From: Nitrospirales bacterium
GTDB taxonomy: Bacteria > Nitrospirota > Nitrospiria > Nitrospirales > UBA8639
Assembly: GCA_963555755.3 (NCBI GenBank)
Contig: OY820905.2
Coordinates: forward strand, 1,600,001-1,664,000
Direction of reading: 5' to 3'
DNA: 64,000 nt
Both the position numbers and the translations under genes were made by a program. Position 1 is the first letter of the stretch, and every line of letters begins with the position of its first letter. The notes under the pieces are model-generated. The model saw only the letters and a list, made by a program, of their open reading frames with translations. It was not told where the DNA came from and searched no databases. Shown piece by piece: positions 1-12,688 of this stretch.

Positions 1-451
1 CGGTATGCGGCTCGCCATCGTGGGTCACAATATCTTTGACCAGAAAGCCCTCCTGCATCTCAATCCCGAGCGCATCATTGGACGTTCGGACATCATTTTC
101 GAACAGGCCGCGATCCAGTTGGTAAGCCGGAAGGCCCGTGTATGGCTGGGCTCGCGCCGTATACTCAATCCGTTCTTGAAACGAGTCCCCGCCGCCAACA
201 CCGATAAAATGGAGACCATACTTCTCTACGTGCTTGTCAACTTGCGACTCCAGATTTAGGATCTTTCGCAGCCAGAAGGTAGGCGCCGTGCCAATGGACT
301 CTCCCACCTTGTAGGCTGCCACCGGCAGCGGTCGCTTCGTCCGTTCGATGACGAGAATCGACAAATCGGGGAGTTTCATGCGAAGTTGACGCGCAAGTGT
401 CAGCCCCGCAAACCCTCCGCCACAGATCACCACGTCGTAGTATTTTCCCAT
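1..451 (-). CDS. FAD-dependent oxidoreductase, flavin-dependent halogenase-like (5' part only, runs off the window)
   Basis: Manual translation from ATG at 451, with AGAAAGGAGAAG RBS upstream: MGKYYDVVICGGGFAGLTLARQLRMKLPDLSILVIERTKRPLPVAAYKVGESIG...AYQLDRGLFENDV. GxGxxG, KVGES and QLDRG motifs; no stop before base 1. Absent from the ORF track. Confidence 0.8.
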   Translation of the reverse strand, partial: MGKYYDVVICGGGFAGLTLARQLRMKLPDLSILVIERTKRPLPVAAYKVGESIGTAPTFWLRKILNLESQVDKHVEKYGLHFIGVGGGDSFQERIEYTARAQPYTGLPAYQLDRGLFENDVRTSNDALGIEMQEGFLVKDIVTHDGEPHT

Positions 452-524
452 TCTTCTTCTCCTTTCTAGGACCCTGCCCGAGATGAGACTGATCTCGGAC
501 AGGCTCCTCGCCCATAGCCAGAAC

Positions 525-1409
525 TCATCTCTTAAGTCTTTGAAAGGCCTCACTCTCTTCACCGATAAACCACGGACACACAGACGTTCCTTTATAAAAC
601 GAGAAAACGTAAAGTGTAGGGATAGTAGCGATGAGTTCATGAAGTTCAGGTTTGGCATAGCAGAAATAAATATCGTCCGGATAGAGCTGATGATACCTTT
701 TGAGGCCAAACGTTCGAAAAGTCACGTACCGTTCAGCAACCTCTTCTTGAGTCAAGAAACCTCTTTTGACTAAAAGAGAGTGTTTTCCGGCTTGCTCGAT
801 TAATGTTCTAAAACGAGGGTCTTTAAGCGATGCATCGATCTTCGGGATCGATTGTTCAAACATGTTTTCCAGATCAAGCCGCTTCGCGAGTTCCATGACC
901 GAAAAACCCTCATTCCCGTTTAATGCAAAGGCATCCGACCAAAAGTGAGTGTTTAAGGATACAAGCTCAAAATTCTTACCTAGTGACTGAGTCATAACTT
1001 TAAGACTGTGCCAATAGCGATCTATTTGCTCCCTATTGTATCCTTGCAGAAATGAAGCATTGGTATCGGCGAAAAGAATTCTGATAATGAGGCGCGCTCC
1101 CAGGTTCTCAATGGGGGTCATGAATTGATCGCGTAAAAAAAGTAGCGTCGCGCGATCAACCTCATCGGCGACTCCCTGACTCGTCGTTTTGACTCCAAGC
1201 CAGGTTGTTGACAAATTGATAGGCTGATTCGTCTGAATTTTTTCTAATAGGGACTTTTTGACCCCAATGCTATCCAACGGCAAGTGTCGTCTTACCCTTC
1301 GGCTGGTTAAAATTCCATACACAGAATCAACCAAGACATTAGGCTCTACGTCACCAAAACACGTATCTTTTCGTTCAACGCGACGGGGCGTGACCGATAG
1401 TGAGTTCAT
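525..1409 (-). CDS. Uncharacterised protein resembling the PvcA/Dit1 isocyanide (isonitrile) synthase family
   Basis: 294-aa ORF with GGAG RBS. Motif order QPINL..W.G.K / DEVD.ATL.FL / IILFADTN / IDRYWHSL / C-terminal KGTSVCPWF recalls PvcA-like proteins (P.K, PD..E..AL, I.SDG, Y...L, TPWH). Confidence 0.55.
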   Translation of the reverse strand: MNSLSVTPRRVERKDTCFGDVEPNVLVDSVYGILTSRRVRRHLPLDSIGVKKSLLEKIQTNQPINLSTTWLGVKTTSQGVADEVDRATLLFLRDQFMTPIENLGARLIIRILFADTNASFLQGYNREQIDRYWHSLKVMTQSLGKNFELVSLNTHFWSDAFALNGNEGFSVMELAKRLDLENMFEQSIPKIDASLKDPRFRTLIEQAGKHSLLVKRGFLTQEEVAERYVTFRTFGLKRYHQLYPDDIYFCYAKPELHELIATIPTLYVFSFYKGTSVCPWFIGEESEAFQRLKR

Positions 1410-1421
1410 ATTGGCTCCTCC

Positions 1422-3065
1422 TTATCTTTTTCTAAACATAAGCTGGGGTTCCCCGTTGCTTTGTTTGATAATGAAGTTTCCTATGTATTGTTCATTTGTC
1501 TCGGGATAATCTTTACGAAAATGTGAACCACGACTTTCTTTCCGTTTTTGCGCACTCATAGAAACAAGCTTCGCGGTGATATACATATTCCTCAGCTCAA
1601 ACAGTCGGCTTAACTCCTCCCGAGAATTTGCCGCCCATTTGGAGAATCCTCCAAGGCTGCGGTCGATATATTGCACGAGCCTCGTAAGCCCCTCCCCTGT
1701 TCGGATTAAGCCTCCATCGACCCACATACGTTGCTTCAGTGTACTCTGTAGCTGCTCTACGTGATTATCTTCCCCGATATGCCGATCGAGGTTTTGGATA
1801 TACGCTTCCACTTCTGGACAGAACGGCTCTTCATTCCCTGGAGGATTCTTCATAATAAATTCAACGACTGACTGGCCGGCAATCGTTCCAAACACGACAC
1901 AATCAGGCAACGAATTACAGGCAAGTCTATTAGCCCCATGAACCCCACCCGTGACTTCTCCACAGGCAAATAATCCAGGAATGCTCGTTTGAGCCTGTGT
2001 ATCGATAACAATTCCCCCCATGAAATAGTGAGCGCCCGGAGAAACAATCACTTTCCATTCTTTTCTTGGTATTCTTTGTTCGAGAAAATAGGCATAATAA
2101 TCAGGCATGGTTTCTTTTACGGCTTGAGCTTTCACGCCAGAGAGGTCAAGCCACACACCATTTCTTACACCTCGCCCAGCAAGAATCTCTTGAAACATTC
2201 CTCGCGCATGAATATCACGAGTGGCGAGGTCCCCTCGACTATCATGCTTGTTCATAAAAGGCTCTCCGAGAGCGTTCTTTGTCTTTGCCCCAAGACTCGG
2301 AAGACTTGCCGGGATATCCGCGTGAAGGGTCTCGCTTCTCGGCCACGCAACTTCGAGTGGATAATGTTGTACGAATTCCATATCAACCAGTTCCGCTCCC
2401 AGGTTAAAAGCCAAGGCGAATCCATCACCCGTCGCCTCAAGCGGAGTTCGGGTGACTTGGTAGATCTGCCCTGCTCCTCCGGTGGCCACGATAACCGTTC
2501 TGGCGACAAACACTTGGAAAGTCCCTTTTTCTTGGTTCAGGCAAATGACGTAGAACAGAGCGTTCTTCTTCAAAACATCAAATACGAAAAGACCTTTGTG
2601 TATTTCGATGTTTTGATTCCGGATTTTCTGAATCAGAGGGATACTGATATCCGGTCCGTTTTTATGAATTGTGTAAATCATTCGGGGATGTGTATGACCA
2701 CCACCCAGATAGGTTTTCAGACGACCATCTTTCCCTCGATCAAAGGTCACGCCATGTTTTTCAAGTTCAGGAACATATCGAATCGATTGATGCACATAAG
2801 TCGACACCAGGTCTGGATCACATAATCCCCGTCCTGAGGAGAGCGTATCCTCTATGTGAGACCTGAGGCTATCTTCGGACCCATTTTGAACAACACTAAA
2901 GCCTGCTCGAGCAATGGCAGTGGCTCCATTTTTTTCGCTTTTGCCTTTTGTGATAAGAATCGGCTCAATCCCCCGGTCTTTTATCTGTAGGGCCGCGGCC
3001 ATTCCAGCTAATCCGCTCCCCAGTATAATCGTATCGTTTGTGGGATGAACTCTAAATTGAGACAT
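1422..3065 (-). CDS. L-aspartate oxidase / succinate dehydrogenase-fumarate reductase flavoprotein family protein
   Basis: GSGLAG, LGGGHTHPR, DMEFVQHYP, GAHYFMGGI, GVHGANRLACNSL and ESRGSHFRKDYP motifs. No nadA or sdhB adjacent. Confidence 0.9.
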   Translation of the reverse strand: MSQFRVHPTNDTIILGSGLAGMAAALQIKDRGIEPILITKGKSEKNGATAIARAGFSVVQNGSEDSLRSHIEDTLSSGRGLCDPDLVSTYVHQSIRYVPELEKHGVTFDRGKDGRLKTYLGGGHTHPRMIYTIHKNGPDISIPLIQKIRNQNIEIHKGLFVFDVLKKNALFYVICLNQEKGTFQVFVARTVIVATGGAGQIYQVTRTPLEATGDGFALAFNLGAELVDMEFVQHYPLEVAWPRSETLHADIPASLPSLGAKTKNALGEPFMNKHDSRGDLATRDIHARGMFQEILAGRGVRNGVWLDLSGVKAQAVKETMPDYYAYFLEQRIPRKEWKVIVSPGAHYFMGGIVIDTQAQTSIPGLFACGEVTGGVHGANRLACNSLPDCVVFGTIAGQSVVEFIMKNPPGNEEPFCPEVEAYIQNLDRHIGEDNHVEQLQSTLKQRMWVDGGLIRTGEGLTRLVQYIDRSLGGFSKWAANSREELSRLFELRNMYITAKLVSMSAQKRKESRGSHFRKDYPETNEQYIGNFIIKQSNGEPQLMFRKR

Positions 3066-3376
3066 GTTTTTAATAGATCCTTAAGCGATTAAGTGGGTCC
3101 CGGTTGGTCTTTGAACGCGATGATTCAGGCCGCGTTAACCAGACCTAAAAACCGCTACTAGAGACACCCAGCACCCAGATATGGTTTTTCATGAAGGCGT
3201 ACCTCACAGACTTTGGCGTGCAGAGTACAAGGCAAGACGCACGTCTTTTGTGTTTGTGATCATGTCTTCTTCCTTTTCGATCATTTTGATCGGCTGCATG
3301 TGTTGTGAAAGAAGAGTCATCCATCCACCATTTTTCCATAGGATGCTGCCTGTGAGATGCACATGCGTCTCACAGA

Positions 3377-4981
3377 TCAATGAACCATTGCAGACATCCC
3401 CGTCGCGACGTCCGCTCCAACAGGAACCCCGGGAGTTCCCGTCCCGAATTCTTCTTGGAAGAACCGACAGAGCGGCTCGAGGTGGTCATGGTCTTTTTTC
3501 CATTCGCCCAAGATATTTTCAATCACATGATGAGTGCGGAGTAGCTTGTCCTGACGGAAACGCCGAACAATGGGATGGATGACGGTGCTCAATTCCGAAT
3601 GCGCCGTGTCTTCCTTATGAATCCGGTTCACACAAAAGGGATCAACCGCCGCATCGATCAGGTTCTGTCCAAACTCCAGCGCCACGATATAATACTGCTC
3701 GTACCGGCTAAAGGGGCTGTCCTGAACATAGTCGAGGGGCATCTCCTCGTAGTAGCGCACGTCCGCCCCCTCAACCACGAGCAGGTCAATGATATAGTCC
3801 GTCTGTTGCCAGAGGGCCGAACTTCGATTGATGCGCTCGAGGATGACCGCCGCCACCTTCTCGGCCGTAGGCTCAATGCGCCGGGAGGGCCAGTCCTGCC
3901 CATGGTACTTATGCTCAAAGAGCCGCGCTAACCACGAGGTGTTGTAGCGAAAACCATGAATGAAGGCCGACTGATCCTTTTTGAAATCCCGCATTTGCAT
4001 CAACGCCCCGGCAAAATACAGATGCGGCACATTGGTCGACTCCCACTGACTCGTTTGTGCCGGGAAGCGATTCCCGATGGCCAGCGCCGGTTGGCAGGAC
4101 GGATCAAAGATAGAGTCATCGAATTGAAAGCCGGTACAGGTGATGATGCGATCATAGTCCAGGACTTCCTCCTCCCGATGCCCATGGGACGAGATGAACG
4201 TCACTCGAAACCCGTCCCCGGTTCGCTCAATCCGTTTCACCGTCGCATCAATAAAGACATTTTGGGATTTCAAGAGGTAGCTGTCCGCCAAGGTTATATT
4301 CACCGAGCGCAGGTGCCCAATGTGGTGGGTTTTCCAGGCCAGGGTAATGGGGTTGGGGCTCACCAGGTGCATCAATGCCGTGGTCCCAATTAAATGCTCC
4401 GCACTCTCAAAGGCGGAATTGCCTTTGCCGATAAACAGGACCCGCTGGCCGGCAAAGTCTTGGGGATCGATCGAGACGTCCGCATAATTTTCGGTTTGCT
4501 CAATCCCCGGTATCGCAGGCATATAGGGCCGTGACAGCCCGGACGCGACAATCAGCCGATGTCCGGCATACCGGCGGCCTTTTTGATCAACCACCTCAAA
4601 GACCCCGTTTTGTCGTGCGACGCTGATGACCTGGGTTTGATACTGAATGGCGAGATCGAAGTGCCGAGCAAAGCGACCAAGATAGCGCACTAAATCATCG
4701 CCGGTAGGCCAATACGCCTTGGTCTCATCTTTGAGGAGCACGCCTTCCTCATTTAAGAGGGAATTCCAATCCCATCGCAGATTGACACCCGGATCCTCCT
4801 GCCCTGTATGGACTTTGTTGATCGAGAGCAGTGCCCGATGTCGGGGAAACCGCTCAAAAAAACTCCCCGGTTTCTCGGCGCCTTCTAGAATGAGGTACTC
4901 GCGCCGGTTCTTTTGGAGACAGTACCCCAGCTGGAGGCCTCCCGGACCGGCACCAATGATCAGATAGTCATGGATCCGCAT
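3377..4981 (-). CDS. NAD(P)/FAD-dependent oxidoreductase, FOXRED2-like
   Basis: DYLIIGAGPGGLQLG, FPRHRALLSINK, LRWDWNSLL, GKGNSAFE, SAFIHGFRY. Start moved to ATG 4981, which is well spaced from the AGGAG RBS. Confidence 0.85.
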   Translation of the reverse strand: MRIHDYLIIGAGPGGLQLGYCLQKNRREYLILEGAEKPGSFFERFPRHRALLSINKVHTGQEDPGVNLRWDWNSLLNEEGVLLKDETKAYWPTGDDLVRYLGRFARHFDLAIQYQTQVISVARQNGVFEVVDQKGRRYAGHRLIVASGLSRPYMPAIPGIEQTENYADVSIDPQDFAGQRVLFIGKGNSAFESAEHLIGTTALMHLVSPNPITLAWKTHHIGHLRSVNITLADSYLLKSQNVFIDATVKRIERTGDGFRVTFISSHGHREEEVLDYDRIITCTGFQFDDSIFDPSCQPALAIGNRFPAQTSQWESTNVPHLYFAGALMQMRDFKKDQSAFIHGFRYNTSWLARLFEHKYHGQDWPSRRIEPTAEKVAAVILERINRSSALWQQTDYIIDLLVVEGADVRYYEEMPLDYVQDSPFSRYEQYYIVALEFGQNLIDAAVDPFCVNRIHKEDTAHSELSTVIHPIVRRFRQDKLLRTHHVIENILGEWKKDHDHLEPLCRFFQEEFGTGTPGVPVGADVATGMSAMVH

Positions 4982-5344
4982 TTTCATTCTCCTTCTTTGT
5001 AATGAGCCTGTTGAAGGCTGAGGGGTTCGGGAATCTTTCACAATCATGCTCTTCACTTGGAGACGGAGAGTTGCCTTAGTTCGTCCACCTTTTTGATTTT
5101 TTCTCCACAAGTGGATCGTACCGGGAGACCGTTTCCCCTTAGAAAACCTTGCGTGGTCTGTTCGCAGGTAAATAGTCTGGGAGAATAGCCCGCCTGGCTA
5201 CGACCCCACCCAGGTTGTCTTCTGCGTCGACCACGGGCGCGCCGAAAATTGAAATGAAGTATATTGAAATTGGTTTTCTATTTAAATCAGCGGAATCCTG
5301 AAAATATGGTCAGACTTTGCCTCGGGCCCGTGTCCGATTATGTC

Positions 5345-6467
5345 CTAGTGTTTAATTGCTAAGTTAAACTATATTATGTAATTTTGGCCTAATGCCGAGA
5401 ACTGCCCCCCCCCATAGAGATCCCCCCAGAGGACAAGAGAACGTTACGAAACCGGACAAAGAGCCGAACATTGCCCAAGCAAACGGTGGCCCGAGCGAAA
5501 ATGATTTTGGAGAGCGAAGCGGGAAAACCGGTCAAACAGATCGCGCAGGAACTCACCACGTACCCCAACAAAGTCATTGATTGGCGATAACGCTATGTCG
5601 AGAATGGGCTAGCCGGCCTTCAGGATCAGCCCCGCTCGGGTCGACCACCCAAGTATGGTAAAACGTTTCGCAATGATCTGCTCAAGGTGTTAAGCCCACC
5701 GCCGCCCCAAGGGTTGGCCCTGTGGGACGGGCCTGCCGTGGCCGAGGAGTTGGAGGCACCCGTTGACGCGGTCTGGAAAGTGTTACGCAAAGAAGGCATC
5801 AATCTGCAACGGCACCGGTCATGGTGTATCAGCACCGATACAAACTTTGCCAGCAAGGCCGCGGATATTGTGGGGCTCTATTTAGCCCCGCCGGTCAACG
5901 CCATCGTGCTCTGTGTGGATGAAAAACCCAGCATTCAGGCCCTGGAACGAAAAACCGGCTATATCAAAACAGAGAGTGGAAAAGTCATCCGCGCCTACCA
6001 AAGCACCTATACACGACATGGCACGCTCAATCTCTTTGCTGCGCTGGAAGTCTCAACAGGAAAAATTCAGGGCAAAGTGACGCCAGAGAAAAAGCGAACG
6101 GATTTTCAAGCCTTTCTGGATGAAATTGTGGAGGAATACTCTCCAGCCCAAGAGATTCACGTCGTGTTAGATAATGACGGCACCCACAAGAAGAACGACG
6201 AGTGGCTCGCACGCCATAACAATGTCCACTTTCATTTTCCCCCGACATCCGCAAGCTGGCTCAATCAGGTCGAAATCTGGTTTGGGATCTTTTCCCGGAA
6301 AGCTCTCCGGGGCGCTTCCTTTGCCAGTCCTCACCAACTGAGACAGCGTATCGAAGATTGTATCGAACACGACAACCCAACAGCCAAACCATTTAAATGG
6401 CGGAAAAGGGAAGTCAAGGGATCGCAGCTTAAAGATAATATAGCTAACTTAACAAATTAAACACTAG
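5345..6467 (+). mobile_element. IS630-family insertion sequence, full length, with inactivated transposase
   Basis: Terminal IRs CTAGTGTTTAATTGCTAAGTTA and TAACTTAACAAATTAAACACTAG. DDE motifs CVDEK, VLDN and WLNQVE. Confidence 0.92.
5392..6460 (+). pseudogene. IS630 transposase pseudogene
   Basis: +1 frameshift in a 9-C run at about 5405-5413, and in-frame TAA at 5588-5590 where the second copy at 35 kb has CAA. Confidence 0.85.
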
Positions 6468-6574
6468 CCCTTGTCATAGCACCTCCTCCACCCCTTTGAA
6501 AGCCGGCTAGTATCCCACTGGTTACGGGGGGTGTTCCGGCTGCACGTTAGTGTCGCTTGATTTGAGACTCCTAG

Positions 6575-6838
6575 CCTGGATTTCTCACCGGCTGAATTGA
6601 ATAAGGCCGCATTTCATGGCATAACCATTGGGAGCTCAATAGGTTAGAGCCAGAGGAGAGAGTAGCCTTATGAATACAGCGTGTACAGCAGGACAATTGG
6701 AATTTCACGGCCTTGGGCGTCGTGCGGTGGTGGGGCAATTCGATGGGGGAAAGATCAGTTCAGATAGTGGCGGACTGTTATTGCGTGAGGTTGAACAGCG
6801 GGCGCATATTCTCAAACGCCTCGCCGAGTGTTTCGTGA
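6575..6838 (+). mobile_element. IS1380-family element, left end and N-terminal transposase fragment
   Basis: MNTACTAGQLEFHGLGRRAVVGQFDGGKISSDSGGLLLREVEQR is a typical IS1380 N-terminus. It breaks off at the GGGGTCA repeat. The left boundary is approximate. Confidence 0.8.
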
Positions 6839-6839
6839 G

Positions 6840-7036
6840 AAGGGGTCAGAAGGGGTCAAGAAGGGGTCAAATCTTTGGTTGAGAGTTTCGTTTTTAACTC
6901 TTCGGCTTTCTTTTAGCCACTAACCTTTTTATGTGCAAGTGATCTTCTATTCCGAGAAGGGGGCGTGAGCTGAAGTATTAGTCAACAAAAGATTTGACCC
7001 CTTTTTCAAAAGATTTGACCCCTTTTTGACCCCTTT
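6840..7036. repeat. Short element with about 24-bp inverted repeats and stuttered AAGGGGTCA / TGACCCCTT ends (REP/MITE-like)
   Basis: AAGGGGTCAAATCTTTGGTTGA pairs with TCAACAAAAGATTTGACCCCTT. The core is repeated 3 times at each end. Confidence 0.8.
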
Positions 7037-7058
7037 TTCGCGTACCCGCTGTTCTCTT

Positions 7059-8155
7059 GAATTCAAGTAGCAAGTGCAATTCTTTCTCAAATAAGTGGGA
7101 CGAAGAGATTGTTGAAGAGTTGGTTGGGGGTTCGATACCCTCGTGTTTTTCTTGGACGATTATTGAGGAGGTCGACGGCCTCAGTCACCTGTTGCCAGGA
7201 GATCGTCCGAAAATCCGTGTGTTTCGGGAAGAACTGTCGAAGGAGTCCGTTGGTGTTTTCATTGATGCCTCGCTCCCAGGAGGAATAGGGATGGGCAAAA
7301 TAGGTCGTGGCCTCAAGGGCGCGGGCAATTCGTTCATGTTTCACAAACTCTGAGCCATTATCAAAGGTGAGGGTCTTCACACGCTCTTTGAAGGGGCGAA
7401 GGAGTCGGATGATGGCTTGGCTCAATACGTGGGCGGACCGACTCAAGACTCGAGAGCAGACCGTATACAAGGAGGCTCGGTCCACCACCGTCACCAGCAC
7501 GCTTTTTCGATCTTTCCCAATTACCGTATCACACTCCCAATCCCCGAGGCGTTCTTTCTTGTCCACTTCGTGGGGACGCTCCGTGATCGAAATGCGATTG
7601 GGAATACAGGAGGCGCGGGCTCCCGAGCCATATCGCTTGCGGCGATGGCGACGCCCTTGACGAAGAAATGGTTGTCATGCCGCTTTTCGGGTGGCATCAC
7701 TGTAGATGACCCGATAAATCGTTTCATGACTGAGGCTGAGAGCATGGTGTTGTTTCAGGTACCCGCTGACTTGCTCCGGGCTTACGTATTGCCGCACGAG
7801 CTGCGTGATCAAGTGCGCGTGTTCATCCGTGAGCGTGCGAGACTTCTGTCGATTCGCGTCGTATTTTCGATGTTTCACGATCTGCCTGGCCCAGTGATAG
7901 GTATACACATGACACTGCGGATAGGTATTCCGTTTGAGTTCTCGACTGACTGTTGAGGGGTGACGGCCAAGGGCCTCAGCAATCTGCTGTTGTGTTTTCC
8001 CTTCCCGTCGCGCTTGCCAGATGTAAAACCGTTCTTCGGTGCCTAGGTGTTGGTAGTGTTTCATAGATGCAATTCCTCCGGTGACATGGATTGGTTCAGC
8101 CCCTCATCCTACCCAATTCGGGTGGCGAGAGAAATTGCACTTATTGTATGAATCC
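7059..8155 (-). mobile_element. IS30-family insertion sequence
   Basis: Imperfect IRs GAATTCAAGTAGCAAGTGCAATT and AATTGCACTTATTGTATGAATCC. HTH IAEALGRHPSTVSRELKRN; GDWECDTV, TFDNGSEF and SWERGINENTNGLLRQFFPK. Confidence 0.92.
7087..8064 (-). pseudogene. IS30 transposase with a single in-frame TGA (7675-7677)
   Basis: The two ORFs share one frame, and read-through gives ...ATRKAA*QPFLRQGRRHRRKRYG...ISITERPHEVDKKERLGDWE. Confidence 0.88.
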
Positions 8156-8348
8156 GCGTCTTGAATGCGATGGTTTCGACATCTTGAAACCCTTCATTTT
8201 GACCAAACAAAATGGTACCGACAGAGGCCGCAGGGTGTCAATTCGCATTCCGGGCATCCATCTTGTCCCCTGACAGAAACGCCATCTTCCCCCTCCGTCA
8301 CCCCGTCAGTGGTTATCGGGGGTCCATCCGGAAAGGCCTGAAAGAGAA

Positions 8349-8527: not shown

Positions 8528-9132
8528 CAACGTCTGGCGGCACTTGTTCCGCGTCCCCGCCTCCATCTCATTCGTTTCCATGGCGTGCTGGCACCCAACG
8601 CGGCGTTGCGGTCCCAGATCGTCCCCGGCGCGGCCGACCCGGCACCGAACCTCGTCAATGGAGACGGCGATCGCTCCTCGGCCTCCACGCGGGCCCGCAT
8701 GAGCTGGGGCCAATTACTCAAACGCGTCTTCGCCATCGACATTACCACCTGTCCACAATGCGGCGGGCCATTGACCATCCTCGCGGGGATCGAAGATCCC
8801 ACCGTGATCATCAAGATTCTGGGCCACCTGGGCCTACCCCGCCGCGCCCCACCACGAGCCCCAGCCCGCCTCGACGCATTCATGCAAACAGCCTAATCCC
8901 TCCCCGGATTCCGGTTCGGTACCCGAACCGACACTCCCCCTTTGCCCGTTTCCACCCTACACGCCACGAGCAAGCCACAGATTTGGCATAATCCCTGGCA
9001 AAAGGGCCAGGAAGCCCCGACTCACCGGATGCACTCCCGCCTTTCAGACGGCGAAGTGTGCGGATGGACCCCTCACCGCGTTCTTTGGTACGTGGCGATC
9101 TAGTCAAAAAGGCCTTTTGAATTTCCTATTCC
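8528..9132 (+). mobile_element. IS91/ISCR-family remnant: transposase C-terminus (8528-8896) plus oriIS-like end
   Basis: Frame reads QRLAALVPRPRLHLIRFHGVLAPNAALR...WGQLLKRVFAIDITTCPQCGG...KILGHLGLP. Downstream TTTGAATTTCCTATTCC resembles the ISCR oriIS terminus. Confidence 0.85.
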
Positions 9133-9245
9133 CTACATACAAAACCCAGGGTGTTGTGCCCACTTCCCTCCGGTGGTGAACTGAACATTTATAAGTTTTT
9201 TACCCTAGGTTAAAAAACGTGAGTACTTTTTTTTAATAAAAACTC

Positions 9246-9694: not shown

Positions 9695-9776
9695 TGGTCG
9701 GGTTCGATATTCAGTACCAGGAGCCAATCCATACCGTTGGGTTGAGCGGGACGGCTATTCCCCACCCAAATTCTTT

Positions 9777-9919
9777 AGGGTACCTCTAAAAACTAGGCAT
9801 TTTTTGTGAGGGCAAGGAAGCCGCGCGCGGAAAACCGGAGTGTATGGGCGAATACATGAGGATGTGAGCACGCGGCTGACGCCGCCATCACGGAAAAGGA
9901 CGGTCTTTAGAGGTGCCCT
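9777..9919. mobile_element. MITE with terminal IRs AGGGTACCTCTAAA / TTTAGAGGTGCCCT
   Basis: 14-bp near-perfect IRs around a 143-bp non-coding structured interior. Confidence 0.75.
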
Positions 9920-10483
9920 TTACTTCGCCGACTCACATTCCCTCCACCTGATACGTTTATTTCTGAGAAATACTACGCCCTTGGCCATAAGCATAATCGG
10001 CGCCCACACGAAGAGAGCTTCACTGGCGATCACGTGTAACCCGCGCAGTCCAAAAAAATCTGCCCCAATCGGGGAAACCACAATTGGGGTCCAGGGGAAA
10101 AAATACCGGGTATTATCAAAGGGCGCAAAAAACGCCACACCCAAGCCCCCATTCGTCAGTGCATCCAACACCCCATGAGACGCCGTCACCAGAAAGAAAT
10201 GCGTGACCAAGACCCACCACGTTTTTGATCCTCGTGGTATTCCGGGAAATCCCCACACGACAGTCAGCATTGCCACACCAAAGGCAAAACACAGTGAGTG
10301 CATCAAGCCACGATGCCCCAACACGTGGCTATACTCAATGCCCCAGGCATAGCCAAGGACATCCGCATCGGGCACAATCGAACAGAAGATTGATAACACC
10401 CAAAAGCGCGTGGTCCGGATATGAAATGGCTGGGCCTTTCCCAAGGCTCCAGCCAAAAAGGCATGTGTCAACCAAGAGGCCAT
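9920..10483 (-). CDS. Membrane metal-dependent hydrolase (YdjM/DUF457-like)
   Basis: THA, PDAD, GHRGLMHS, SHGVLDALTNGG.GV..FAPF motifs. Confidence 0.9.
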   Translation of the reverse strand: MASWLTHAFLAGALGKAQPFHIRTTRFWVLSIFCSIVPDADVLGYAWGIEYSHVLGHRGLMHSLCFAFGVAMLTVVWGFPGIPRGSKTWWVLVTHFFLVTASHGVLDALTNGGLGVAFFAPFDNTRYFFPWTPIVVSPIGADFFGLRGLHVIASEALFVWAPIMLMAKGVVFLRNKRIRWRECESAK

Positions 10484-10661
10484 AGATTCTCACCCACGTT
10501 TAGCCGTGACTTCCGTACCACACATTCTCCCCCCCATAATAGAAAGATTATAATGAATCCACGAAAGACGCACTCAATTCTTTTACGGCAACCTTTCCCC
10601 TCTGCTTTATGGCTATTTCAATTAACTTCCGTTGTCTCTGCGGCTGGCGGGAGCACAAGAG

Positions 10662-10779
10662 CGTAAACCCGAAACTCGAATATCGAAATCCGAAACACAT
10701 GAGAATGACCAATTTGAAAAACTCGAATTTAAGATTTCGGATGTATTTCGACATTCGATATTCGTATTTCGAGTTTATG
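10662..10779. repeat. Long hairpin built from 7-mer repeats (AAAYYCG-type / CGRRTTT-type)
   Basis: CGTAAACCCGAAACTCGAATATCGAAATCCGAAAC pairs with ATTTCGACATTCGATATTCGTATTTCGAGTTTATG. Confidence 0.75.
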
Positions 10780-10834
10780 GAACTGATTTGAAATGACTAT
10801 AATCACCAAGAGGGTCCCCCACCGATAACTCGCC

Positions 10835-12688
10835 ATGTCACGCAATACCATTATGACCCATGTGTGGCTGCTGACTGGCTTCCTGCTCCTGCTGCCAGTT
10901 CAGGGCATTGGGCAACAACCCAGCCCTTATCAGATCCAAACCCAGGGAGAAGACATTTCATATACTCGGACATCCCGGTACCTCATGATGCGAGATGGCA
11001 TCAAACTCGCCATCGATGTGTATCTTCCTACCTCCTGGCAAGCTGGCCAACGACTGCCCACCATGCTTCATCAAACACGGTATTGGCGAGCCATGGCCTA
11101 CCGATGGCCCCTGAGCGTGTTTAAAGAGACCCTTCCACGAGGGCTCATCGGCCAATACACCAAGCGCTTTTTGGCGAATGGATACGCGTGGGTGAGTATC
11201 GACGTTCGTGGGTCGGGAGCCTCTTTTGGCAGTCGCCGATATTCTCATTCCCCGGAAGAAATCAAAGATGGCGCGGAAATCGTCGAATGGATTGTTCAGC
11301 AGCCATGGTCGAATGGCAAGGTCGGCTCTTTAGGGATTTCATACTCCGGCGCCTCGGCTGAACTCCTCTTGGTGAACCAGCACCCAGCTGTCAAAGCCGT
11401 GGCACCGATGTTTTCAGGCTTCGACTTGTATCCGGAAATTATCTATCCCGGTGGCATTCATCTGAGCTGGTTTACGAAAACGTGGTATCACATCACCAAA
11501 AACCTGGATCGCAATACCCTGCCTTTCGGCAGTTGGCTGGGCGCACTCGCTATCCAGGGAGTACACCCCGTCGATGTGGATCGTGATGAGAGGTTGCTTG
11601 ATCAAGCCATCGCCGCTCACGCGTTCAATTGGAACCCACACAAAGAAGCATTGGGAATCATCTTTCGTGATGATGCGCCCTCCTCGAGCCCAGTCCCCAA
11701 CATCGATGCCTTGGGACCGGTGTGGTACCACGAAAAAATCGACAGCTCGGGCGCCGCGATGTATAGCTATACCGGATGGTTTGATGGAGGCTATCAACAT
11801 GCCGCCATTCGACGACATCTGACGAACCCCAATAATAAATTGATCATCGGCCCGTGGGACCATGGGGGACGCCGGCGCATCAGCCCTTACAGCATCGGGC
11901 CGGTTCAGTTTGATCACGCCGGCGAACTATTGAAATTTTTTGATTACCATCTCAAAGGCATCCAAACAGGGATTAATCGGGAAAAGCCAATCCACTATTT
12001 CACCATGGGCGAGGAGCAATGGAAATCGACCACCTCCTGGCCACCAACGGCAACACCCGTCACATTGCACCTCGCACCAAATTTTGAGTTGCGCGAAGAA
12101 CCGCCTGCAGACGAACACACACAAGACATCTACAAGGTCGATCCCACAGCCGGCACGGGACGGGAGTCCCGCTGGCATACGCTTGTCGGCTTGCCAATCA
12201 ACGATCCCTATCCCGACAGAATAGAACAAGACAAAAAGTTGTTGGTATATACCTCCCCTCCCCTGGAGGATGACTGGGAAGTCACGGGCCATCCTTCTGT
12301 GACCCTGTACTTCAACATCTCAGGCAAAGACGCCACGGTCTTCGCCTATCTCGAAGACGTGAACGAAGAAGGCACCGTCTCGTACGTGACGGAAGGCATG
12401 CTCAGGGCCATTCATAGGAAATTGAGCCAAACACCCGCCCCTTACCGTGATCCTGTTCCCTACCGAACCTACCTCCAAGCCGATAGCCAACCGATCATTC
12501 CTGGGAAGGTCACCACTCTAACATTCAACCTGCTTCCCACCTCCTACCTCTTCAAAAAAGGGCACCGAATTCGCTTGGCCATTGCCGGTAGTGATAGGGA
12601 TCATTTTCGACCATTGCCAGGTCTCTTGCCCTTATTTAGGGTCATAAGAAATCATATGCCTTCCCATTTGACTAAGGTTAGTCCCTAG
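10835..12688 (+). CDS. CocE/NonD family hydrolase with signal peptide; native C-terminus displaced by IS1595
   Basis: MRDGIKLAIDVYLP, DVRGSGASFG, GISYSG nucleophile motif, IIGPWDH. The native tail QMSPSHLILPIVTN* lies after the IS and ends at 13717. Confidence 0.92.
   Translation: MSRNTIMTHVWLLTGFLLLLPVQGIGQQPSPYQIQTQGEDISYTRTSRYLMMRDGIKLAIDVYLPTSWQAGQRLPTMLHQTRYWRAMAYRWPLSVFKETLPRGLIGQYTKRFLANGYAWVSIDVRGSGASFGSRRYSHSPEEIKDGAEIVEWIVQQPWSNGKVGSLGISYSGASAELLLVNQHPAVKAVAPMFSGFDLYPEIIYPGGIHLSWFTKTWYHITKNLDRNTLPFGSWLGALAIQGVHPVDVDRDERLLDQAIAAHAFNWNPHKEALGIIFRDDAPSSSPVPNIDALGPVWYHEKIDSSGAAMYSYTGWFDGGYQHAAIRRHLTNPNNKLIIGPWDHGGRRRISPYSIGPVQFDHAGELLKFFDYHLKGIQTGINREKPIHYFTMGEEQWKSTTSWPPTATPVTLHLAPNFELREEPPADEHTQDIYKVDPTAGTGRESRWHTLVGLPINDPYPDRIEQDKKLLVYTSPPLEDDWEVTGHPSVTLYFNISGKDATVFAYLEDVNEEGTVSYVTEGMLRAIHRKLSQTPAPYRDPVPYRTYLQADSQPIIPGKVTTLTFNLLPTSYLFKKGHRIRLAIAGSDRDHFRPLPGLLPLFRVIRNHMPSHLTKVSP

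Follow-up and report, generated by a model that had tools for sequence, protein, structure and literature searches.

A putative biosynthetic island flanked by insertion sequences in a Nitrospirales bacterium pairs a PvcA-fold protein with an SdhA/NadB-like flavoprotein beside predicted halogenase and oxazolone genes

Isocyanide synthases of the IsnA/PvcA type condense the amine of an amino acid with a sugar phosphate, and their partners IsnB and PvcB carry out a desaturation that uses O2. Flavin-dependent halogenases are recognized by a GxGxxG motif, a catalytic Lys and a WxWxIP motif, cyclodipeptide synthases (CDPS) by a catalytic Ser and a YxxxExP motif, and tyrosyl-tRNA synthetases (TyrRS) by HIGH and KMSKS. 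In oxazolone biosynthesis, according to the accessible text of the respective sources, Rv1355c, named TrzS, cyclizes and desaturates N-acyl tryptophan to an oxazolone (PMC12856293), and OxzB performs the same reaction together with the N-acyltransferase OxzA (bioRxiv 10.1101/2020.06.11.147165). Here we describe relatives of some of these enzymes encoded at the left edge of a 64,000-nucleotide stretch of the genome of a Nitrospirales bacterium (GCA_963555755.3, contig OY820905.2, positions 1,600,001 to 1,664,000; hereafter the window). With about even confidence, we read the locus as part of a 22-kb patchwork island, flanked by insertion sequences (IS) and likely acquired, in which a pair of genes for amino-acid modification and desaturation, low in GC at third codon positions (GC3), sits within a high-GC3 backbone for a possibly halogenated N-acyl-oxazolone. 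All chemistry of the island discussed below is prediction.

The window corresponds to C1:1600001-1664000 of a 4.62-Mb, two-contig genome with a completeness of 99.4%. As described in an earlier note made from the window alone, it opens with four minus-strand open reading frames (ORFs) of the same orientation. They encode proteins of 534 (gene 1), 547, 294 and 564 amino acids (aa); the last of these, starting at 451, runs past the window edge and is complete in the genome. The GC3 values of the four genes are 0.65, 0.43, 0.44 and 0.61, respectively, compared with a genome median of 0.545 and a 5th percentile of 0.446 (1634 long ORFs). Only 12 bp separate the two middle genes, and hairpin-bearing gaps border the pair on both sides, one of 311 bp towards gene 1 (3066-3376) and one of 73 bp towards the halogenase gene (452-524). 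The GC3 step, the border hairpins and the contexts of homologues indicate at least two modules, contrary to the single operon proposed earlier, and the four genes probably do not form a single unit.

The AlphaFold2 (AF2) model of the 294-aa protein, built from two sequences (pLDDT 73), retrieved PvcA and PIsnA as the first-ranking Foldseek matches (E 4e-7, TM 0.54), and VIA-align gave PIsnA/PvcA Z-scores of 15.9, 15.7 and 15.4 (top match: root-mean-square deviation 3.7, 229 residues aligned) compared with 14.1 for the best TyrRS. Profile searches also placed PvcA/PIsnA above TyrRS. The protein thus shares the fold of the isocyanide synthases PvcA (3E59) and PIsnA (9DH4/9DHM) over residues 18-289, yet is 13-16% identical to them. 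A profile-profile match to three canonical PF05141 proteins reached 92.9% over 107 columns, with the N-terminal half alone aligning, and the Atlas places the protein with DIT1_PvcA-bearing clusters at 0.95, with low recognition. Lys74, Asp82, Asp115 and Tyr132 align with conserved PF05141 positions, and the terminal PW motif is kept; the canonical motifs used for comparison (FPxKS, PDxxE, SDG, RSxAW, RLSIHPQ and TPWH) were derived from three sequences only. The protein had no match to PF05141 (cut-off 26.4 bits) at E ≤ 10, nor was it assigned to any Pfam or NCBIfam family. The earlier description of this protein as PvcA-like therefore stands for the fold and fails for family membership and, as the protein lies outside PF05141, an isonitrile product is plausible, not established. 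No conserved Ser was found at the CDPS nucleophile position; after the invariant Tyr228 comes Arg232 in the 294-aa protein and Glu in some of its relatives. Neither HIGH nor KMSKS was seen in the 294-aa protein. The main text of PMC2922099 mentions neither PvcA nor Dit1. The IsnB/PvcB partner family, the iron- and 2-oxoglutarate-dependent TauD family (PF02668), had no match in the 99.4% complete genome, with a positive Escherichia coli control; TauD-like ORFs, judged by eye, follow two of the three canonical PvcA genes fetched.

A profile of this sister family retrieved 160 clusters (50% identity) at E ≤ 0.001, seven of them at E ≤ 1e-30. One close fragment belongs to a Pacearchaeota archaeon, and a member at greater distance occurs in Diapherotrites. 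Pfam scanning of 84 of the 150 listed relatives left 66 without any hit; the others comprised fusions to AMP-binding domains (10), asparagine synthetase (4), NMT1 (2) and CT_C_D (1), along with one DIT1_PvcA hit below the cut-off. Sister-domain fusions were observed in P0299, P0305, P0325, P0333, P0328, P0336, P0369, P0309, P0385, P0355 and P0366; one of these fusions is to a protein with a multiheme cytochrome and AMP-binding_C, and in L033/L040 (L040:489-2093) a stand-alone member lies beside a CT_C_D gene.

The putative partner of this protein, the 547-aa flavoprotein, has the FAD_binding_2 and Succ_DH_flav_C architecture of NadB (1CHU), SdhA/FrdA and TfrA. Its closest relatives are four proteins at 46-50% identity and a metagenome fragment at 53%, with the next matches at ≤38%, and in a quick tree of 38 rows the five full-length clade proteins group together (SH-aLRT 100), outside NadB (100) and TfrA (98). 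All NCBIfam scores shown for the protein fall below their cut-offs, including that of NadB (TIGR00551, 350 bits versus 452.75) and the best one, TfrA (NF004900, 416 versus 718). Compared with E. coli NadB, Arg290, His351 and Arg386 are kept (Arg283, His346 and Arg380 here), whereas Glu121, His244, Thr259, Glu260 and Ser389 are changed to Gly121, Tyr235, Pro252, Ala253 and Cys383; all five clade members share Gly121, Tyr235 and Ala253, with either Pro or Ala at position 252. In the accessible text of PMC10249383, Glu121 of NadB is the proposed base for the amine, and His244 and Thr259 hold the second carboxylate. The available part of another study describes family enzymes with this motif changed as acting on monocarboxylates (bioRxiv 10.1101/2022.01.20.477176); among these, acrylate, methacrylate and urocanate reductases likewise keep the first-carboxylate motif and alter the second. 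They are, however, more distant in sequence (urocanate reductase, E 4e-22), and the 547-aa protein has no FMN-binding or OYE domain. Since the second-carboxylate residues are lost and the first-carboxylate and proton-transfer residues kept, we infer from the sequence a monocarboxylate desaturase or reductase, probably with a bulky substrate.

The protein lacks the dicarboxylate site of SdhA/FrdA/TfrA, an iron-sulfur partner gene nearby and the covalent-FAD His of SdhA/FrdA. Housekeeping NadB or SdhA was considered and rejected on account of the separate clade, the changed site residues and the presence elsewhere in the genome of its own nadB and sdhA-sdhB (a third paralogue is also encoded). 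The earlier note had remarked on the missing nadA and sdhB and had named grouping with housekeeping NadB as a refutation; neither gene lies nearby, and the protein does not group with NadB. We also observed a separate Bacillota clade of SdhA-like proteins with a QHYP motif and no dicarboxylate motif, encoded in a recurring locus (L005, L006, L013-L019, L021 and L023), at about 10001-11650 in most cases. The neighbors, identified by eye in L005, L006, L021 and L023, are tripartite-transporter, amidohydrolase, lyase-like and TPP-enzyme genes, possibly representing an undescribed catabolic pathway.

Evidence that the two middle genes travel together is indirect. P0002, the homologue nearest to the 294-aa protein, and P0006, a flavoprotein of the clade, each come from one Logan contig of 12,393 bp, and their genes probably share a single metagenome contig. 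Co-occurrence elsewhere, on which the earlier note had made its proposal depend, has this indirect support for the middle pair; none of the other sequences searched contained the four genes in this order. An exact-pattern scan of genome contigs for the flavoprotein clade yielded 11 loci, none of the clade, and a search of metagenome contigs 9 loci, one of which belongs to the clade and is truncated by the contig end; viral contigs gave no matches, and plasmids gave none for either the 294-aa protein or protein P0308. Whole-genome sampling covered the host phylum and the phylum of genome G367, with DPANN, Patescibacteria, cyanobacteria and myxobacteria covered by exact-pattern scan only. In the phylum of G367, the sister-family profile had 3 matches in 401 genomes, none near such a flavoprotein, and the halogenase 2 matches in 381 genomes, with no other island genes in the fetched 20-kb stretches. 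In the host lineage, none was found among 300 genomes of the class (flavoprotein clade), 250 of the order (gene 1) and 400 of the phylum (PvcA-fold family). This patchy distribution is consistent with the horizontal acquisition suggested earlier. The flavoprotein clade, its pairing with a PvcA-fold protein and an oxazolone synthetase beside a halogenase were all absent from the literature searched, which misses most subscription papers.

The two genes bracketing the pair belong to other families. The 564-aa protein, present in identical form in a public collection, carries GGGFAG at residue 11, Lys77, aligned with the Lys of PDB 3E1T, and WVWFIP at 237; the last of these lies in the part of the gene beyond the window, where the earlier note had advised looking for it. 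The gene is complete, and halogenation is predicted from these motifs, which the protein shares with PDB 3E1T, CmlS and PltA despite being remote from them (best E 9e-20). The closest halogenase relatives fetched, at 32-38% identity, are encoded beside GNAT and hpaB genes, polyketide synthase and antiporter genes, or genes judged by eye to be ketosynthase-like. The 534-aa protein, labeled FOXRED2-like in the earlier note, belongs to the Pfam family Pyr_redox_3; its AF2 model matches FMO, TrxR, Bdr, BVMO and related enzymes among the Foldseek matches listed, making monooxygenation the likeliest predicted reaction. A single-component halogenase of the AetF type was also considered for gene 1 and found no support in the PDB sequence and fold matches listed, among which AetF is absent; we found no literature on bacterial biosynthetic gene clusters with FOXRED2. 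The family is widespread, with at least 4265 homologues, most of the named ones cyanobacterial; several relatives (P0129, P0134, P0165, P0167 and P0231) are extended at the N terminus by ~240-280 residues that match nothing in Pfam. In two actinomycete records, homologues of gene 1 have a Na+/H+ antiporter gene nearby, one together with a CoA ligase and a P450, the other with an FMN dehydrogenase. Such antiporter genes lie close to gene 1 homologues as well as to halogenase homologues (L027:8422-9723, L028:12889-14232, L029:14098-15372 and, by eye, L044:10468-11724), but the present island has none.

The earlier expectation of a continuation to the left was supported: ~17 kb of the island lies beyond the window edge, with ten more co-oriented ORFs, biosynthetic genes among them, down to C1:1583145 (Table 1). 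The ThiF-nitroreductase fusion resembles OxzB/TrzS both in its domain fusion and in its Rv1355c score above the cut-off, and the island, like OxzAB and TrzAS/TyzACB, has a GNAT-like gene upstream of it. It differs from OxzAB/TrzAS in that the GNAT is divergent and not adjacent, and in the addition of a halogenase, a methyltransferase, a CoA ligase, a SnoaL-like protein and FG-GAP proteins. The available text of the two oxazolone papers (PMC12856293 and bioRxiv 10.1101/2020.06.11.147165) contains neither 'halogenase' nor 'halogen'. Clusters with a halogenase and an AMP-binding protein are, as far as the accessible text of bioRxiv 10.64898/2026.08.03.742642 goes, common in sponge and seawater metagenomes, so that this part of the island is not unusual. 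A 174-bp remnant of a second Rv1355c-type start directly follows the intact GNAT, and the duplications behind the two in-frame chimeras measure 774 bp at 95% identity and 174 bp at 81%, the former in agreement with a doubled read depth; the chimeras suggest that the cluster was once duplicated in tandem and then suffered deletions. Most differences between the GNAT copies fall within the repeat's first 120 bp, the remainder being almost identical. The 564-aa orphan was assigned by neither Pfam, NCBIfam nor the Atlas and possibly represents another low-GC cassette.

Table 1. Features of the island and of its right-hand flank (window positions, or genome positions where prefixed C1; L003 coordinates in brackets)
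Feature	Position	Strand	Remarks
DDE_Tnp_1_4 transposase	C1:1581334-1582626		closes the run on the left
785-aa FG-GAP protein	C1:1583145-1585502	-	
SnoaL-like protein	C1:1585542-1586054	-	
CoA ligase	C1:1586051-1587682	-	
ThiF-nitroreductase fusion	C1:1587744-1590107	-	Rv1355c model, 746 bits versus cut-off 476
Methyltransferase	C1:1590347-1591105	-	
Second chimera	C1:1591086-1592675 (L003:1086-2675)	-	FG-GAP-protein start and GNAT end, in frame
904-aa FG-GAP/UnbV protein	C1:1592688-1595402	-	
564-aa orphan	C1:1595426-1597120 (L003:5426-7120)	-	GC3 0.37; directly upstream of the 904-aa FG-GAP/UnbV gene
Chimeric remnant	C1:1597069-1597557 (L003:7069-7557)	-	Rv1355c-type start and UnbV end, in frame
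GNAT-like protein	C1:1597648-1598655	-	GNAT hits weak, below cut-off
564-aa predicted flavin-dependent halogenase, 5' part	1..451	-	whole gene C1:1598757-1600451; Trp_halogenase E 7e-15
44-nt hairpin	467..510	-	between cassette and halogenase; 18-nt end motif of a dispersed miniature repeat
294-aa PvcA/IsnA-fold protein, unnamed sister family	525..1409	-	starts 12 bp after the flavoprotein stop
547-aa SdhA/NadB/TfrA-family flavoprotein, own clade	1422..3065	-	remodeled second-carboxylate site
Hairpins directly after the gene 1 stop	3317..3376	-	inside the 311-bp gap; first 60 nt fold at -20.6 kcal/mol, without shuffle control
534-aa two-dinucleotide-binding flavoprotein, FMO/TrxR fold	3377..4981	-	Pyr_redox_3 E 3e-44; AF2 pLDDT 86.7
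330-bp repeat	5016..5345		one other genomic copy; ~35 bp before the first ATG of the 534-aa gene
IS630-type element	5345..6468	+	Pfam DDE_3; in-frame TGA
IS30-type element	7056..8159	-	Pfam HTH_38 and rve; in-frame TGA
Transposase-like 3' fragment	8528..9133	+	no Pfam hit; half its length matches 17 genomic sites, counting itself

On the right, the genes abut mobile elements, which the earlier note had counted as four degraded IS elements. That count is roughly right: two have Pfam support, and we take them to be IS630 (from DDE_3) and IS30 (from HTH_38 and rve), one is a fragment (8528-9133) that is presumably IS91-like, and the fourth is a 330-bp repeat. This repeat, whose start lies close to a GGGG motif, adjoins the left end of the IS630-type element at two genomic places, 5016-5695 of the window and C1:2522802-2523481, so that the two were apparently copied together. 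Two more short multi-copy repeats of ~150-190 bp lie among the IS elements (window 9759-9927 and 6836-7026). At the hairpin before the halogenase gene, a 76-nt segment folds at -32.8 kcal/mol, without shuffle control, and the 18-mer of the hairpin occurs 79 times at ≤1 mismatch; a ~165-bp miniature inverted-repeat element in the gap between the methyltransferase and ThiF-nitroreductase genes (L003:154-320) has the same end motif.

The arrangement is supported by short-read assemblies. One contig assembled from run X1 covers all four genes (L003:8260-15068), two overlapping contigs of X4, from a different study, cover the four-gene stretch, and the long contigs of both runs show no differing letters, although X1 and X4 are not necessarily independent of the source of the window. 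An assembly artefact was accordingly rejected, given that the genes are spanned by short-read contigs and the duplication is at doubled read depth. RNA run X11 contributed only short pieces over the stretch, at a depth of 2-5, possibly DNA, and a promoter scan was at chance level (16 found versus 15.7 expected).

How the island might work can be proposed by analogy. In the cassette, the 294-aa enzyme would condense the amine of an amino acid with a sugar phosphate, yielding an isonitrile or a related N-modification. The flavoprotein, with non-covalent FAD and through Arg283, His346 and Arg380, would carry out an α,β-desaturation (or the reverse reduction) of a monocarboxylic substrate, taking over the step normally performed by IsnB/PvcB with O2. 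In the backbone, the CoA ligase may activate an acid with which the GNAT N-acylates an amino acid, the ThiF-nitroreductase would cyclize and oxidize the acylated amino acid, and the resulting oxazolone would be tailored by the halogenase, the methyltransferase and the FMO-like enzyme. The cassette may or may not share its substrate molecule with the backbone. In the more specific form of this proposal, which we regard as a long shot, a sister-family isocyanide synthase would act with a succinate-dehydrogenase-like flavin desaturase instead of IsnB/PvcB, so that vinyl or α,β-unsaturated isonitriles, or related N-modified dehydroamino acids, would form without an oxygenase; the pair would be a mobile two-gene cassette, with close relatives including a DPANN archaeon, that was inserted into a halogenase-oxazolone cluster.

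Several observations weigh against the patchwork reading and its chemistry. The C-terminal RSxAW and RLSIHPQ of canonical isocyanide synthases could not be aligned to the 294-aa family; the His-to-Tyr/Phe change in the flavoprotein is common (38 of the 89 homologues with a parsed motif, out of 120), and His234, one residue earlier, might stand in for the lost His. Pairing elsewhere is read from a single contig-length match; two other close PvcA-fold relatives lie on contigs of 45,828 and 41,551 bp, lengths seen for no flavoprotein contig, and the three distant sister-family members whose surroundings could be read all lack such a flavoprotein in the vicinity. No dedicated flavin reductase was identified, the GNAT hits fall below the cut-off, and the methyltransferase and inserts separate the GNAT from the ThiF-nitroreductase. 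Finally, the two chimeras and the repeat ~35 bp before gene 1 suggest rearrangement or decay.

The last point is the core of an alternative in which the locus is a decaying pile of cluster fragments, gathered by transposition in an IS-rich genome and without a working pathway. The chimeric ORFs, the 774-bp duplication, the broken IS elements on the right, the transposase on the left and the repeat in the promoter region all fit such a history, which we nevertheless consider unlikely, as all four genes, together with those for the methyltransferase, ThiF-nitroreductase, CoA ligase and GNAT to their left, have uninterrupted frames of full length, and the long contigs from the runs of two studies show identical letters over the genes. 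Somewhat less credible still is that the four genes and those to their left form one co-transcribed pathway to a single halogenated isonitrile. All 14 ORFs are co-oriented with mostly short gaps, and hapalindole-type clusters, according to the part of the source available, combine isonitrile synthases and halogenases; however, the GC3 step and hairpins bracket the middle pair, neither the flavoprotein nor the PvcA-fold gene occurs in any of the four halogenase-homologue loci or in the two gene 1-homologue loci, and the metagenome clade member in L004 has unrelated upstream genes. The middle pair itself could have another chemistry, the 294-aa protein being an amide-forming or group-transfer enzyme nearer to TyrRS/CDPS and the flavoprotein a catabolic enoate reductase. 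The small lead over TyrRS in Z-score, a CDPS among the Foldseek matches, the fusions of family members to AMP-binding (10 of 84) and asparagine synthetase (4 of 84), and the Bacillota flavoproteins that have the same QHYP motif as this one and lie amid transporter and catabolic-looking genes (by eye) are in line with this possibility, which appears rather improbable in view of the higher rank of PvcA/PIsnA in both structure and profile searches and the lack of the CDPS nucleophile Ser and of a visible HIGH/KMSKS. We retain the patchwork island as the preferred reading.

Each protein of the island falls in a known superfamily. The pair nevertheless provides a two-protein test case for a large, unnamed family with the isonitrile-synthase fold, its 160 clusters being missed by Pfam, and adds to the SdhA/NadB-like flavoproteins a new clade whose substrate site is rebuilt. 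The oxazolone synthetase beside a halogenase suggests halogenated oxazolones and, should the proposed role of the pair hold, an O2-dependent iron enzyme would not be needed for isonitrile tailoring.

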